In this document: positions 18,889 through 32,769 of the stretch, piece by piece
How the letters are laid out: every line of letters begins with the position of its first letter
Numbering within the stretch: the stretch's first letter is position 1
Notes under the pieces: model-generated
What the model saw: the letters and a program-made list of their open reading frames with translations, nothing else
Database searches by the model: none
What the model was told of the DNA's origin: nothing
Translations under genes and position numbers: made by a program
Source of the DNA: a phage
Strand: one strand, 5' to 3'
Sequence record: PZ445435.1
Length of the DNA stretch: 64,000 nt

Positions 18889-19196
18889 CGTAAATTCCCT
18901 GCAATTGGTATACTAACAATACGCCCAGTATCTAAAATTCGCTGATATAATCTTTGCGTGTCTACGTCAGGCTTAACATGTTTAACTTCTATTTTATTAA
19001 ACCAAAACTTACGTGGAGTCTCAACTAATCTTGGAATTCCCTTACCTAAAGCTAGTCGATACTGCTCTTTAAGAGTAGTAAATACTTTATCAGCAATATT
19101 CCATTCAAAAAATACAGCAGGACGATGTTCATCAAGTGGAACTGGCGCTGTAAATCCGTCTTTGTCTCGGTAAACTATCGCATATACATAAACCAT
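18885..19196 (-). CDS. hypothetical protein (dda.1 position)
   Basis: 103-aa ORF, 4-nt overlap with dda. Confidence 0.55.
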   Translation of the reverse strand: MVYVYAIVYRDKDGFTAPVPLDEHRPAVFFEWNIADKVFTTLKEQYRLALGKGIPRLVETPRKFWFNKIEVKHVKPDVDTQRLYQRILDTGRIVSIPIAGNLR

Positions 19197-19197
19197 A

Positions 19198-19944
19198 TTA
19201 TCCTCGGATAAGTTTAAAAATTGAACAATTTAGCGGGTATCCTCTTTTCAGTTTAAGTTTATCAATAAAAGACAAATTTTGATACCGCTCTACACCTTGA
19301 ATAATTTTATCACACATATCATATTGCATTTCTGCTTCTGACAGCTTTTTCACAATTTTCCAATCCGAGCCTTTAAGAAGAACGTTCAGTTTAACAACTT
19401 CAGCGCCTTCTGCTATGCGAGAACCATCAATACGAGCTTTAAGTGCTATAATCCTTAGCTTAATGTCAGAGGTCTGTTTTGATTTAGAAAGCTGAGAAAT
19501 GTGTTCAATTCGATTTTCACGTTTTTTCTGTATAGCTTTAATTTGATTATAAGTCTTTTTGATTTTAGCCCATTTCTTTTCATCTAAATTTAGTTTATGA
19601 ACTTTTTTCGCAGATGAACGACCAATTCGCAAAGCAAATAAATCCCGTTTTTCAATCAACTCTTCTAAAGTATAATCAGAACGAAATGTATTATACTTTT
19701 TCTTTACTGCAATAACATTCCCTTTAATATATCCAATGTTATTATCAAAACGTTCTAATGATAATTTCTCTCCTTCAATACGATTATCAAAAGGTTCTCC
19801 CGAGTAAGCACAAACTTTTTGATCTAAAATGTTCTTAATGTAATTGAAGTCTAAGTTAAAATCTTTAGAACGTCTTTTAGCAGATGCCTGAGTGTGCTCT
19901 AAACGACGTTTAATTTTACGAATTTGATTATTAGACAGTTTCAT
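19198..19944 (-). CDS. srd: Srd-like basic protein (assigned by size and synteny)
   Basis: 248 aa, Lys/Arg-rich; located between dda and modA as in T4. Confidence 0.55.
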   Translation of the reverse strand: MKLSNNQIRKIKRRLEHTQASAKRRSKDFNLDFNYIKNILDQKVCAYSGEPFDNRIEGEKLSLERFDNNIGYIKGNVIAVKKKYNTFRSDYTLEELIEKRDLFALRIGRSSAKKVHKLNLDEKKWAKIKKTYNQIKAIQKKRENRIEHISQLSKSKQTSDIKLRIIALKARIDGSRIAEGAEVVKLNVLLKGSDWKIVKKLSEAEMQYDMCDKIIQGVERYQNLSFIDKLKLKRGYPLNCSIFKLIRG

Positions 19945-22018: not shown

Positions 22019-22171
22019 GGGATTTCCTTTTGCCTACTAATGGACCATCGGGAATTTTGTTTTCCTGGATATATTTCTCATTTTCTTCCATCATTTTACT
22101 GCCAATTTTAAGAAGCAAATCTAAGGCTTCATTTGCTTTAGCTTTAGCCTCTTCTAACGTCATGTTCTTGT

Positions 22172-24722: not shown

Positions 24723-24747
24723 ATTATACAATAAATATATAAAGCAA
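24723..24747 (-). promoter_or_regulatory. MotA-dependent middle promoter for gene 56
   Basis: Minus strand TTGCTTTA-13nt-TATAAT. Confidence 0.5.
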
Positions 24748-24960: not shown

Positions 24961-25985
24961 ATCTTAGCATATTTAGATAGCCGCATTTTAGCCATCAACC
25001 CCTGGGCAATATTATTTTTCATATATTCCATAATTTGTTCAGGGGTTGCACCTTCCTTTCTAATCATATCATTAACATCTTTTGATTTCCAGGGAGATTT
25101 ATCCCAAAACATAACCCTTTCTCCTGCATCAACTAATTTAGTCATTCGTTTGATAGTGTCAGGGTGACGAGGTTCATTATCTAAAACCCACACTCGTCTA
25201 TCTTTAAATGGAACAACTTCTAGGTCTAATTGACCACCCGTAATAGCTATACCATTTTCAATAAAAAGTGAATCTATAGGTCCTTCTAGAACATATACAT
25301 CACCATCTTTAACTCGTTCGACTCCATATATTTTTGTTGCCTCAGGATAAGCTTTGATGGTGATATATTTTTGAGGAGCATCTTTCTTTAATGCACGTCC
25401 TTGAAAAGACTCAGCTTTTCCATTAGCATTATAAATTGGAATAACAAGACGAGGCTCAGAAATTTCCTTTTTGTATGTTCCCGGTGCTATGCTATTAACT
25501 AATTTAGGCCATTCGGTTGTAAACCAAAGATATTTCCATTTATCCTTTGGAATACAACGAGCTTTTACATATTTTATAATTGGATGGTCTTCCGCCAGTT
25601 TATCTAATCTAACGCATGACGGAAGAGATTTAATTATTTTCTTCTCAGGTTGTTTAGGAAGTTCTTTAGGTTTTTCTACTGGACGACTTTTACCTTTTTC
25701 TTTTCTTATTTCAAAGATATACTCACGATATAAATCAGGTTCAAACTCCTTTAAATATATTCCGATTGGTGCATGATAGTTACAGTTATAACAATGAATA
25801 TTTCCTTCATTATTATCACCATAATACCATCCACGAGCTTTATTCTGGTCGGTTTTTGAATCTCCACAAACAGGGCATCTAAACCGTAATTTAAAAGTTG
25901 AACTATTATTTACTTGTGTGAATTTAGGTAAATGAGCTAATGCACGGTATGCAAACTCATTATCAATCCAAGGTATTGATGACAT
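24957..25985 (-). CDS. 61: DNA primase gp61
   Basis: 342 aa, zinc ribbon CPVCGDS...CYNC; size matches T4 gp61. Confidence 0.9.
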   Translation of the reverse strand: MSSIPWIDNEFAYRALAHLPKFTQVNNSSTFKLRFRCPVCGDSKTDQNKARGWYYGDNNEGNIHCYNCNYHAPIGIYLKEFEPDLYREYIFEIRKEKGKSRPVEKPKELPKQPEKKIIKSLPSCVRLDKLAEDHPIIKYVKARCIPKDKWKYLWFTTEWPKLVNSIAPGTYKKEISEPRLVIPIYNANGKAESFQGRALKKDAPQKYITIKAYPEATKIYGVERVKDGDVYVLEGPIDSLFIENGIAITGGQLDLEVVPFKDRRVWVLDNEPRHPDTIKRMTKLVDAGERVMFWDKSPWKSKDVNDMIRKEGATPEQIMEYMKNNIAQGLMAKMRLSKYAKI

Positions 25986-25987
25986 TT

Positions 25988-26152
25988 TTACTCTTCTTTT
26001 TCTTTAGATTCCTCTTTTTTCTTTTTAGGAATCTGTTCAGGACCTTTATTTACTACAGCGCCTGACGTTGTTCCAGTAGAGATATTTTCAGGATTACCAC
26101 CTGAATCTCCAGCGACCATATCTTCTTTGATAAATTCTTTATATGTTTTCAT
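25988..26152 (-). CDS. small hydrophilic protein (54 aa)
   Basis: Hand-translated MKTYKEFIKEDMVAGDSGGNPEN...; coupled to upstream ORF. Confidence 0.35.
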   Translation of the reverse strand: MKTYKEFIKEDMVAGDSGGNPENISTGTTSGAVVNKGPEQIPKKKKEESKEKEE

Positions 26153-26153
26153 A

Positions 26154-26510
26154 TTAACCTCTATTCATAAAAGCATTAAAAATTTGGTCATCAATAGATG
26201 GTGCAGTAATATTTTCTGCATCATTTAGCAAATCATTAATTTCATCAGATAGCATAACACATGTACCTTTATTTCCTGTAATTGTTACTGCACAATTACG
26301 AACGTTTTCTTTATCAAATTTTAGGTTAATATTTTCGTAGTGAAAATCCTTTAATGCCGAATATATCTTTAAAATAAAATTGTCTTTTACTACAATAAAC
26401 CCAACCTCACTATTAAAACGTGGTTCATGGAAACTGTAATAAACCTTTTCATCTATAAAATCGTATGAAATTTTTTCCATTTTTAAATATGAAAATTCAG
26501 AACTATACAT
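26154..26510 (-). CDS. hypothetical protein, short paralog of next ORF
   Basis: 118 aa; C-terminus SIDDQIFNAFMNRG near-identical to end of 26512-27159 product. Confidence 0.55.
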   Translation of the reverse strand: MYSSEFSYLKMEKISYDFIDEKVYYSFHEPRFNSEVGFIVVKDNFILKIYSALKDFHYENINLKFDKENVRNCAVTITGNKGTCVMLSDEINDLLNDAENITAPSIDDQIFNAFMNRG

Positions 26511-26511
26511 A

Positions 26512-27159
26512 TTAACCTTTATTCATAAAAGCATTAAAAATTTGATCGTCAATAGAAACTTTTACTTTAGGCTGTTCTTCAAACGGTAATTCATATCCAC
26601 ATATTACAATTTTGTGATCGATACCAAAATACACAGAAGCAATATGATTAATATTATTTTCAGTGAAATCTAAATCAACATCAATATCTTTTTGACTAAC
26701 GCTCAAAGGATAATTAATACGAATAATTCGATTATCTTTAACAAAGATTCCACCGACATACTCTGTGTTGCGTTTAAAGTTTACACGTTTCCTAAATGAA
26801 AAATATTCAGGTTCTTTATGAGCCCGACTCATAGGACACAATGAGTAGCTAGAATAAGAGATGTCAAATCCTACACCTTCAATATGAATATGAGCCAACG
26901 TGTCATGATTAAACCAATTATAATCATATGCCAAATCCATTATATTGTAATATGTGAAAGGCACCGGATTAACATCATATGTTGTACCTTTAAAATCTGC
27001 CCAGGCAACGATTTCGTTATCTTTAACAATTACAAAAATTGTGCCAATAAGATATCCACGGTTATTTTCATCAGGTGTTATATTATAACATTGTGCATCA
27101 GGAAATTTACCGTATTTAAACGGTGGATTTTTGTGCATATAATAAATCATATTATTCAC
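26512..27159 (-). CDS. hypothetical protein (61.2 position)
   Basis: 215 aa; C-terminus SIDDQIFNAFMNKG. Confidence 0.55.
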   Translation of the reverse strand: MNNMIYYMHKNPPFKYGKFPDAQCYNITPDENNRGYLIGTIFVIVKDNEIVAWADFKGTTYDVNPVPFTYYNIMDLAYDYNWFNHDTLAHIHIEGVGFDISYSSYSLCPMSRAHKEPEYFSFRKRVNFKRNTEYVGGIFVKDNRIIRINYPLSVSQKDIDVDLDFTENNINHIASVYFGIDHKIVICGYELPFEEQPKVKVSIDDQIFNAFMNKG

Positions 27160-27445
27160 CTGTGATTTCGGTTACGATATTTTTGTTATTAAAGTTTTTA
27201 TCGCAATACAGAACATAATTATACTGCATTACACCACCAGACTTAAGTTGTTTTTGCACTTCAGCTTTCATTTCAGGACGATCGCGCTCAACGATATTCA
27301 TAATATCTGCTTCAATTTGGGTTTCAACTTCAGTCTGATCCGCAGTCATAGACCATTCGCACAAATCTTTATCATAGCCTGCCATAGCAGGCTGAGCAGC
27401 ACAAGAAGCCAAAGTAAAAATTGTAGCAAAAATAAATTTTTTCAT
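27152..27445 (-). CDS. sp: periplasmic protein Spackle-like
   Basis: 97 aa with signal peptide MKKFIFATIFTLASCAAQPAMA; size and position match T4 sp. Confidence 0.7.
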   Translation of the reverse strand: MKKFIFATIFTLASCAAQPAMAGYDKDLCEWSMTADQTEVETQIEADIMNIVERDRPEMKAEVQKQLKSGGVMQYNYVLYCDKNFNNKNIVTEITGE

Positions 27446-27505
27446 GATAATCTCCTCAGTAGTTTATGTTTATATAGTATCTCAATTTCCAACAAAAGTA
27501 AACAG

Positions 27506-27805
27506 CTATTTTAAAACTTCTGCATAATCACATGTTACAAACTGTTTCTCTAGCTTGACGATTTTACGAAAGTATCTTTTGCATTGGCGAATCTGTCGCT
27601 TCGTGGGGCGAACAGCAAACTTAATAAATTCCACTCGACCAAATGGAGGACTTTCTTCTGCTGGAATATCTAACACCAATTCCCACGTATCTGCAATAAG
27701 TGCTTTGAATTGAGTATTTTTCCTGACGTTATACGGAGTAGGTTTAAATAAAACAATATGCATATTATCCTCGGCAATCCACTTCGCACACTTTCTTGTC
27801 ATCAA
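27506..27805 (-). CDS. hypothetical protein (61.4 position)
   Basis: 99-aa ORF between sp and dmd. Confidence 0.5.
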   Translation of the reverse strand: MMTRKCAKWIAEDNMHIVLFKPTPYNVRKNTQFKALIADTWELVLDIPAEESPPFGRVEFIKFAVRPTKRQIRQCKRYFRKIVKLEKQFVTCDYAEVLK

Positions 27806-27947
27806 TGAAAGCTTTAACTAATGCTTTATTAACTTCAGCATATTGAGTAGTAGCCCATTGAACGTCATCTTTCATCATTGTGATTTCTTTAGTAAACATG
27901 CTTTCATTCTTAAACCACCCCATAAAAACTACCTTTACCAATTCCAT
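27765..27947 (-). CDS. dmd: Dmd (antitoxin against RnlA/LsoA)
   Basis: 60 aa, MELVKVVFMGWFKNESMFTKEIT...; immediately downstream of gene 41. Confidence 0.75.
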   Translation of the reverse strand: MELVKVVFMGWFKNESMFTKEITMMKDDVQWATTQYAEVNKALVKAFIDDKKVCEVDCRG

Positions 27948-27975
27948 AACAATCTCCTCATTTAACCAACAAGAC

Positions 27976-28006
27976 TACTATACCATAGTCTTGTCAGCTT
28001 GTAAAC
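27976..28006 (-). promoter_or_regulatory. early promoter for dmd
   Basis: Minus strand GTTTACA...TATAGT; -35 overlaps gene 41 stop. Confidence 0.5.
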
Positions 28007-29433
28007 TAAAATTTTAATTCATTTGCCAAAGCATCTAACTGAGCTCGAGTGGATTCATTTCTTTGATAGCGATTCTGCTCAGCCTGAATCTGTTGTGAAC
28101 CTGCTACTTCACTCACTTCAGTTGGAGTAGAATCTTGTTCAATTTCTACCCATTTTTGATTTCCTTTTTGAACACCCATCAAAAACTTATTCCACTTATT
28201 CTTATCACCATATCGTGATTTGATTTGCTTAATGAGTTGTTGTTCAGCAGCTGCTAGCTCCTCGGTTTCAATGACCGCAAGCATAAAATCAGCTGTTGCT
28301 GGAAGACCAGCAGATTCTGCAATATCGCTCATGTTAACATCGGAAGAGTCCCAAGCTTGTTTACCAACCTGTGCTGCAGTCCAAAGAACAGTTTCGGTTT
28401 CAACAGCCAGAGCACGCAATTCCTCTGCGATAGCTTTAACAGTTGTGTAACTATTTTCTGAATAAACTCTAATGCGGCAAGATTTACAAATACCTAGATA
28501 GTCGACAATAATGATTGTTGGAACAAAATTCTTCTTGAGCTTTAATTCATTTAAAAGTGATCGAAATGTATTAGCGTCTGCTCCACCAGTAGGATATTGC
28601 TTAACGATTAAACGACCAAGGGTAGATTTCTCACGCCATTTTTCCATTTTTCCTTTATACTCAGCGTAAGAAATATGCCCATCATCAATGTCATCAAGAG
28701 AAACATCGAGCATGTTAGCATCAATACGTTTAGCACAGACTTCTTCTGCCATTTCCATGGAGATATAAAGAACGTTATGACCAAGCTGCAAATAATCTGC
28801 TGCCAATGAACACAGACCTAATGACTTACCAACGTTAACGCCAGCCATTAAAACGTTCAGTGTTCCAGTCTCAGCTCCACCTTTCGTAATTTTGTTTAGA
28901 ATTCTGAGTTTAAATGGAACCTTACGAGCTTTATTCATATAAGATAGCCAACGCGCTTCATAGTCATCCATCCAATCATGACCAACGTAGCTATCAAATG
29001 AAATTGATAATGCTTGGCGCATGATGTCAGGAATAGCACCTACATCTGGCATTTTCTTATTTCGTTTTTCCGGAGGAAGCTCAGCATTAGTTTGAATTTC
29101 GATTATTTTAGACGTAGCATTAAACATCGCCCTTTGCTGAACATATTTTTCTGTTTCTTTTACTAACCAGCTGTGGTCTTCTGGAGAATCAGCCAGTTTT
29201 GAAATAAGTGTTTTTACACCAGAATATTCTGTTTCAGTAAATGAACTATTTTCTAATGCAACATTTAACGCATTAATAGATGGAACGCTATGATACTCAT
29301 TAACATGAGATTTAATTAATTTGAATGTATTTTTAGCTGGACCACTTTCAAAATATTCTGAATCCATATATGGCCAAACTTTTGAAAAATAAGCTTGATC
29401 AAATATGAGATGAGAAAGAATAATTTCTACCAC
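28006..29433 (-). CDS. 41: replicative DNA helicase gp41 (DnaB-like)
   Basis: 475 aa, Walker A GVNVGKS; size matches T4 gp41. Confidence 0.9.
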   Translation of the reverse strand: MVEIILSHLIFDQAYFSKVWPYMDSEYFESGPAKNTFKLIKSHVNEYHSVPSINALNVALENSSFTETEYSGVKTLISKLADSPEDHSWLVKETEKYVQQRAMFNATSKIIEIQTNAELPPEKRNKKMPDVGAIPDIMRQALSISFDSYVGHDWMDDYEARWLSYMNKARKVPFKLRILNKITKGGAETGTLNVLMAGVNVGKSLGLCSLAADYLQLGHNVLYISMEMAEEVCAKRIDANMLDVSLDDIDDGHISYAEYKGKMEKWREKSTLGRLIVKQYPTGGADANTFRSLLNELKLKKNFVPTIIIVDYLGICKSCRIRVYSENSYTTVKAIAEELRALAVETETVLWTAAQVGKQAWDSSDVNMSDIAESAGLPATADFMLAVIETEELAAAEQQLIKQIKSRYGDKNKWNKFLMGVQKGNQKWVEIEQDSTPTEVSEVAGSQQIQAEQNRYQRNESTRAQLDALANELKF

Positions 29434-32619: not shown

Positions 32620-32769
32620 TCAATTGATACATTCATATTTAACTTGTAACAGTAATAAACTCCAACCTAAAATAATAGTTGGAATCATAAGAGGAACCGT
32701 TACACTATAGTATATACTTATTATAACCATCAAGATTAAAAGCAATGCTGCTATAATTTTGCTTTTCAT
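32620..32769 (-). CDS. small membrane peptide (49 aa)
   Basis: Hand-translated MKSKIIAALLLILMVIISIYYSV...; ATGA overlap with imm stop. Confidence 0.35.
   Translation of the reverse strand: MKSKIIAALLLILMVIISIYYSVTVPLMIPTIILGWSLLLLQVKYECIN

Follow-up and report, generated by a model that had tools for sequence, protein, structure and literature searches.

A shared 3' coding tail of adfA and its half-length paralogue carries the middle promoter P61 and a probable recombination junction in a T-even phage

The results presented here indicate that the phage gene adfA is followed by a gene for a half-length paralogue, and that both genes end in a short module in which a conserved peptide, the middle promoter P61 and the Shine-Dalgarno and stop/start signals of the next gene lie on the same DNA. 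In the reading that we favor, with a probability of about 0.7, this tail module is kept by selection on its peptide, on P61 and on the Shine-Dalgarno/junction signals, and it acts as a homology arm.

The window analysed in this work is the whole 64-kb stretch of record PZ445435.1. A 1.6-kb region of it matches Escherichia phage PaulHMueller (BASEL phage Bas45, MZ501098.1) with 100% identity, and the window phage can be assigned on this evidence to PaulHMueller, a Tequatrovirus. All genes of the locus lie on the minus strand, in the order gene 41 helicase, dmd, a DUF7279 gene, sp, the long ORF, the 118-aa ORF, 61.1 and gene 61. The upstream neighbor of the long ORF is sp (spackle, 27152..27445, minus strand; Pfam PF25676, E = 5.8e-45). 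At the other end, gene 61.1 (25988..26152, minus strand; 54 aa, phrog_1823) is annotated in both T4 and Bas45 and is followed by gene 61, the DNA primase gene served by P61 (24957..25985, minus strand; from the ORF list and annotation, the promoter name from PMC2988021). The preliminary description had placed small anti-defence genes of T-even phages between gene 61 and gene 41. This agrees with the Pfam matches to Dmd, Spackle and AdfA and to a DUF7279 protein at the T4 61.4 (tifA) position adjoining dmd, and with the study of Srikant et al. 2022 (PMC9391042), who named the region the "anti-TA island" and explicitly flagged its remaining genes as candidate anti-toxin factors.

Two further observations concern this island. 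Besides the DUF7279 gene upstream of sp, Gaprivervirus-like phages have another TifA-like DUF7279 gene, of 73 aa, after the tail-bearing genes (L010:3065-3286, L005:3359-3580, L006:3311-3532), so the tifA family is also duplicated within the island. Moreover, several GenBank records give implausible product names to the small genes between sp and gene 61, the 118-like genes and a 145-aa family described below included ("major capsid domain-containing protein", "serine/threonine protein kinase", "DUF2528 domain-containing protein", "nucleotidyltransferase"). Pfam scans of 61.1, of the 118-aa and 145-aa families and of the 73-aa DUF7279 gene gave no support for such names.

The long ORF can be identified by its sequence as AdfA (gp61.2). 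It matches the Pfam AdfA profile (PF23813) over its full length (E = 1.4e-136, 453 bits), is 73% identical to T4 gp61.2 and has the two-domain architecture of about 210 aa; T4 gene 61.2 is known to encode anti-DarT factor A (PMC9391042; PMC11257639). A mechanical ORF list starts it at GTG 27159, which yields 215 aa, whereas the GenBank CDS (bas45_0145; 26512..27150, minus strand) starts at ATG 27150 and yields 212 aa. With the latter start, the sp stop and the adfA start form a TAATATG junction, as at the other two gene boundaries. The R164H switch lets RB69 AdfA bind DarT1, and two-hybrid binding of AdfA(R164H) to DarT1 has been reported (Johannesman et al., PMC11257639). The window AdfA carries a His at this specificity position (NINH, residue 169 of the 212-aa form). 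Its AlphaFold2 model is of moderate confidence (pLDDT 68.6), and the tail helices are low in pLDDT. Comparisons of its N-terminal half gave z = 2.0-3.9 (z = 2.2 for an internal duplication of the two halves), a common VKDN motif and a repeated strand-helix pattern; on this weak evidence, the domain may exist in a third copy, older than the others, at the N terminus of AdfA. Neither a sequence search of solved structures with the AdfA profile nor NCBIfam returned anything relevant, the latter giving no family match.

The gene is also a mosaic. T4-type and Bas45-type adfA are very different over the first ~190 nt (window 26960-27150) and about 90% identical from codons DVNPVPFTYYN onward, which suggests a second recombination breakpoint within adfA. 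A 6-nt tandem duplication (CATATT twice on the coding strand, window 26881-26892) adds an extra His-Ile to AdfA (AHIHIEG) and is missing from its closest relatives.

The 118-aa ORF (26154..26510, minus strand) belongs to phrog_4122 (E = 2e-72), the RB32ORF033c family, and is annotated under this name in RB51; no paper in the searchable literature mentions RB32ORF033c. Its match to the Pfam AdfA profile reaches 31.9 bits (cut-off 27), covers profile positions 113-211 only and is largely driven by the tail, which is why the tail was cut off before the bodies were compared. Without it, residues 1-104 align to AdfA 109-198 with a Smith-Waterman score of 59 (z = 5.5), a score reached by 0 of 2000 shuffles. 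Thus, the proposal of tandem paralogues in the preliminary description holds for the tail-free bodies, and the Pfam AdfA profile matches both ORFs. Outside the tail the two proteins are about 27% identical, and they have in common the hairpin motif VGxIxVKDNxI, the helix that follows it and the predicted order of strands and helices. The 118-aa protein forms one domain, in contrast to the two-domain AdfA architecture, and at the aligned specificity position it has an Asn (NVRN), neither His nor Arg. AlphaFold2 predicted its fold with good confidence (pLDDT 83.4, pTM 0.72): five strands, a helix, a strand and a helix, then a flexible linker and a separate tail helix (residues 106-115).

This short gene is under selection. 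Compared with its orthologues, dN/dS is 0.15-0.33 and dS reaches saturation. By tblastn, the gene was found in 337 phage records, with its length conserved there and in another genus, and orthologues in Gaprivervirus are 46% identical. The 118-aa ORF is therefore a real, selected gene and a paralogue of the C-terminal half of AdfA. A HMMER search of 1.84 billion representative proteins returned three related clusters only, which makes the family tiny and a deep alignment impossible, and word-index searches returned close relatives only; the 118-aa/AdfA family is tiny and confined to phages. A distant member of 125 aa, 42% identical, lies directly after sp in a Logan assembly (L037:3001-3378, SRR23924977). 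It keeps the peptide tail and lacks both the TAATATG junction and the -10 box, so the peptide is conserved more deeply than the promoter.

The 3' ends of the two ORFs, SIDDQIFNAFMNRG in the 118-aa ORF and SIDDQIFNAFMNKG in the long ORF, had already been noted as nearly identical, and the DNA beneath them as an imperfect direct repeat of ~40 nt about 360 bp apart (26161-26200 and 26519-26560). The repeat is real and slightly longer than these positions indicate: it measures 49 nt (26150-26198 and 26508-26556), with 46/49 positions identical (94%), a shared 14-codon tail and a start-to-start distance of 358 bp. With up to 3 mismatches allowed, the whole window holds exactly two copies, against 0.00 expected from 100 shuffles. 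On the coding (minus) strand the repeat reads TCT ATT GAY GAY CAA ATT TTT AAT GCT TTT ATG AAT ARA GGT TAA T ATG, i.e. the last 14 codons of a gene, its TAA stop, one T and the ATG of the next gene. Copy 1 (26150..26198, minus strand) joins the tail of the 118-aa gene to 61.1, which lies directly downstream, and copy 2 (26508..26556, minus strand) joins the tail of adfA to the 118-aa gene. The copies differ at three positions (GAC GAT in copy 2 vs GAT GAC in copy 1, and AAA vs AGA). Over the last 15 codons, the stop, the T and the ATG, the sequence at copy 1 matches that of T4 at the end of gene 61.2 without a difference. Given the shared peptide and the codon usage of the genome, 11/13 codons are identical where 7.6 would be expected (P about 0.04). 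Within this window alone, the DNA repeat is thus mostly explained by conservation of the peptide.

A broader view was obtained by searching viral and metagenome contigs with the back-translated tail and then reading the neighborhoods of the matches. One and the same tail was found on three protein bodies, namely AdfA (208-216 aa), the 118-aa family and a family of roughly 145 aa (phrog_8539). Every viral or metagenome match whose neighbors were examined lies at this locus, downstream of sp and ahead of 61.1. In Gaprivervirus, the 145-aa gene and a 118-like gene stand in tandem, both with the tail. The 145-aa body has no significant sequence similarity to the AdfA and 118-aa bodies; it was also considered as a homologue of the AdfA N-terminal domain and rejected, since z was at most 2.3 and the Foldseek match was weak and included the tail. 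The tail pattern was absent from 185,579 bacterial and archaeal genomes. The tail consensus is S[IV]DDQIFNAFM[NK][RK][GD], and over 22 distinct tails the core DDQIFNAFM shows zero amino-acid changes while 6/9 of its codons vary synonymously. The tail peptide is under purifying selection, and the repeat is the conserved 3' module of this family, not a recent duplication. The 118-aa model shows the tail as a separate amphipathic helix behind a low-confidence linker; this suggests a tethered interaction element that may be shared by the family.

A property of the repeat that was absent from the preliminary description is that it coincides with the mapped T4 middle promoter P61, which depends on MotA and AsiA. 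The start site of P61 in T4 is 19122 (Hinton 2010, PMC2988021 Table 1, citing Marshall, Sharma and Hinton 1999). Given the T4 coordinates of 61.2 (19132-19758) and 61.1 (18966-19130), transcription starts at the ninth base of the 61.1 ORF and positions -12 to -7 fall on TAATAT. The -10 box therefore consists of the 61.2 stop codon, the T and the AT of the 61.1 ATG. In the window, the orthologue of P61 spans 26151..26178 (minus strand), with the MotA box at 26178-26169, the -10 box at 26156-26151 and an expected start at about 26144; from the MotA box to +1 this copy is identical to T4. The MotA box, TAATGCTTTT, matches wwwTGCTTtA at 9/10 positions, lies within the codons N-A-F and is the same in both copies of the repeat. 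The 12-nt spacer of copy 1, ATGAATAGAGGT, holds the GAGG Shine-Dalgarno, which accounts for the rare AGA/CGA Arg codons at the end of the tail.

In both copies a spacer of 12 nt separates the MotA box from TAATAT, in agreement with the arrangement by which middle promoters were recognized here (a TAnnnT -10 box at a spacing of 12 +/- 1 bp). The second, candidate P61-type promoter (26509..26536, minus strand) lies in the adfA tail, with the same MotA and -10 boxes and one change in the spacer. Its predicted start, at about 26502, is inside the 118-aa ORF, so it cannot express the 118-aa gene; the latter presumably depends on early transcripts and on translational coupling at the TAATATG junction. 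In the record of phage Lutter (MT682714), each of the two tails bears a 27-nt promoter feature annotated by the depositors. The window has 24 occurrences of the pattern TGCTTYW-N11-13-TANNNT, vs 5.35 expected, and both tails are among them. The repeat would thus have duplicated the promoter in Bas45, and we infer that the second copy fires. In Mosigvirus and Gaprivervirus the MotA box of the tails is degraded (GCA TTT, GCC TTC), and the promoter layer may for this reason be specific to Tequatrovirus.

Other observations were made on these signals. The sites that fit the pattern are mostly on the minus strand (24723-24746, 22093-22117 and 32720-32744, for example) and are candidate MotA-dependent middle promoters. 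Tail copies that precede a 118-type gene always end in AAA GGT, AGA GAT or CGA GAT, and the endings AGA GGT and CGA GGT never stand before such a gene (window 26512-26520; L034, L050, L005, L006, L036, L038). The GAGG Shine-Dalgarno ahead of the 118-aa gene is thus weakened each time, via three different substitutions.

The comparison of related phages points to the tail as a place of exchange. The arrangement is sp-adfA-61.1 in T4, sp-adfA-118-61.1 in Bas45, RB51 and slur03, and sp-118-61.1 in T2, Bas44 and IME339. About 486 records carry AdfA, 337 the 118-aa gene and about 120 the short gene only, as inferred from BLAST summaries; among the sequenced Tequatrovirus-like records, about half have the 118-aa gene, T2 and several BASEL phages being examples. 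The tail adjoining 61.1 has an identical sequence after a T4-type AdfA body or a 118-aa body. T4 differs from both slur03 and L050 by an indel of exactly 358 bp that is delimited by the repeat; the left flank shows 95-96% identity and the right flank 98%. In T2-type phages, a one-mismatch remnant of the tail end, TAGAGGTTAGTATG, lies between the sp stop and the 118-aa gene, which points to a loss of adfA. The same 12-nt sp/118-aa spacer with this remnant is found in T2, Bas44 and IME339 (L002:2489-2500; L053 and L054:761-772); it keeps a TAnnnT hexamer and has no MotA box, so these phages have a single copy of P61. In the neighboring dmd-tifA locus, microhomologies of 6-10 bp are known to suffice for recombination in T4 (Srikant et al. 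2022, PMC9391042). These data support the notion that gains and losses of these genes among related phages go through recombination at the tail.

The tails of paralogues within one genome differ on average at 3.9/42 nt (1 nt in slur03 and L050), whereas for tails of one family compared between genera the figure is 7.0/42 nt, and the bodies show the opposite pattern. This indicates concerted evolution of the tails within a lineage. If the promoter and the Shine-Dalgarno were selected in parallel, that could mimic part of this signal, and such selection may contribute to it.

Taken together, the model that we favor would work as follows. Both proteins would combine a fast-evolving beta-sheet body with an invariant C-terminal helix. 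The 49-nt repeat is the DNA of the tail, on which several signals overlap: the conserved peptide, the MotA-dependent P61, and the Shine-Dalgarno and stop/start junction that would couple translation to the next gene. Selection would hold the module nearly identical on different bodies, and it would for this reason become a portable homology arm. Bodies could then be inserted, deleted or swapped, and the copies homogenised, by homologous recombination from one copy to another. The 118-aa protein would bind or inhibit a defence toxin, though not DarT1, the one that has been tested. It is also possible, if rather doubtful, that the tail is a portable module with two jobs, a common interaction helix on interchangeable bodies and a promoter-bearing homology arm, in which case the locus would be a natural counter-defence cassette system and the 118-aa protein an inhibitor of another toxin or defence system.

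Simpler explanations have to be weighed against this model. An invariant peptide combined with an AT-rich codon bias could leave a DNA repeat as a mere by-product, without any role in recombination or transcription; the codon agreement within the window is only mildly unusual under this assumption, and across genera the peptide is invariant while synonymous sites differ. Nevertheless, peptide constraint does not explain why the full tail (15 codons, stop, T and ATG), its rare AGA included, is identical on two bodies, why synonymous sites co-vary within a lineage, why the 358-bp indel between phages is bounded exactly by the repeat or why a mapped promoter lies inside the tail, and we consider this explanation unlikely. 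Conversely, the module might be kept purely for P61, the ribosome-binding site and the stop/start junction, the peptide being incidental. The position of P61 in the T4 tail and the rare terminal xGA GGT codons, which suit the GAGG Shine-Dalgarno, speak for such a DNA constraint. However, upstream of the MotA box the codons S-I-D-D-Q-I-F vary synonymously but never in amino acid, other genera alter the MotA box and keep the peptide, and the distant L037 member retains the peptide without the TAATATG junction, which leaves an incidental peptide scarcely probable.

The preliminary description had suggested a recent partial duplication or recombination. Recombination at the repeat is supported by the 358-bp indel, the shared tail and the remnant in T2-type phages, and this part of the suggestion stands. 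If the duplication were recent, the 118-aa gene would be a partial copy of recent origin, made from the 3' half of adfA, with the repeat as its undiverged part; the tandem position of the genes, the alignment of the 118-aa protein to the C-terminal half of AdfA only and the 94% DNA identity of the tail are what one would expect. However, the bodies are only about 27% identical outside the tail, dS is saturated between 118-aa orthologues, the same tail sits on the unrelated 145-aa body, and the 46%-identity Gaprivervirus orthologues, which stand beside a different tail-bearing gene, show that the duplication is old. A recent event is thus very unlikely, and the tails are similar because they are conserved (DDQIFNAFM unchanged in 22 tails) and homogenised within lineages. 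The least probable of the alternatives is that the 118-aa ORF is a decaying remnant without a function of its own. T4 does without the gene, and T2 lacking adfN is sensitive to DarTG1 despite carrying it, but a remnant would hardly show a dN/dS of 0.15-0.33, a length kept across the 337 records and another genus, and a confidently predicted fold.

With regard to the function of the 118-aa protein, T2 has been described as having no adfA homologue (Johannesman et al., PMC11257639), the 118-aa gene thus not being counted, and T2 without adfN is unable to plate on DarTG1 (PMC11825919). Since this phage still has the 118-aa gene, the DarTG1 toxin is probably not the target of the protein; T4 AdfA is equally dispensable on DarTG1. 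Given that AdfA binds DarT1 through a determinant in its C-terminal half, our best guess is that the 118-aa protein may be a stand-alone binder of a toxin other than DarT1.

The dmd-tifA-sp-adfA island is the store in which T-even phages keep inhibitors of toxin-antitoxin defences. The 118-aa gene, as an uncharacterised relative of adfA within it, is an obvious anti-toxin candidate that has been overlooked when phages such as T2 were scored "adfA-negative". Moreover, one short sequence appears to encode a peptide and to act simultaneously as mapped promoter, ribosome-binding site and junction for recombination. This overlap of roles would explain the presence/absence pattern of adfA and the 118-aa gene, and it predicts measurable rates of deletion and duplication in the phage stocks used for defence screens. 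If the cassette reading were true, T-even phages might shuffle, stack or drop bodies to diversify their counter-defence.

To conclude, the gene family and the promoter were already known; in the searchable literature we found neither a widespread single-domain AdfA paralogue nor a common coding tail that is at the same time the P61 promoter and a recombination junction. The 118-aa protein resembles AdfA (PF23813) in its locus, its C-terminal domain (the VGxIxVKDNxI hairpin and the following helix) and its identical tail. It differs in having one domain instead of two and an Asn in place of His/Arg at the specificity position, and in that its gene evidently gives T2 lacking adfN no protection against DarTG1. 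Copy 1 of the promoter is the T4 P61 from the MotA box to +1 and copy 2 has the same MotA and -10 boxes; unlike in T4, the element is present twice in this phage, 358 bp apart, and the second, candidate copy would start transcription in the 118-aa ORF. The closest described analogue is the PeSL cassettes, which consist of intergenic early sigma-70 promoters with a terminator stem-loop (Arbiol et al. 2010, PMC2839356). In both cases, short conserved regulatory sequences flank non-essential genes, and recombination inserts, deletes or replaces these genes. However, the tail module does not belong to the PeSLs, since its promoter is of the middle type and lies within coding sequence, and no stem-loop accompanies it (0 terminator-like hairpins in 25800-28100). 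The dmd-tifA events described in the same island (PMC9391042) are likewise gains and losses of counter-defence genes driven by recombination. They took place in the laboratory at microhomologies of 6-10 bp, whereas the tail module is a naturally maintained repeat of 49 nt whose copies are 94-98% identical.
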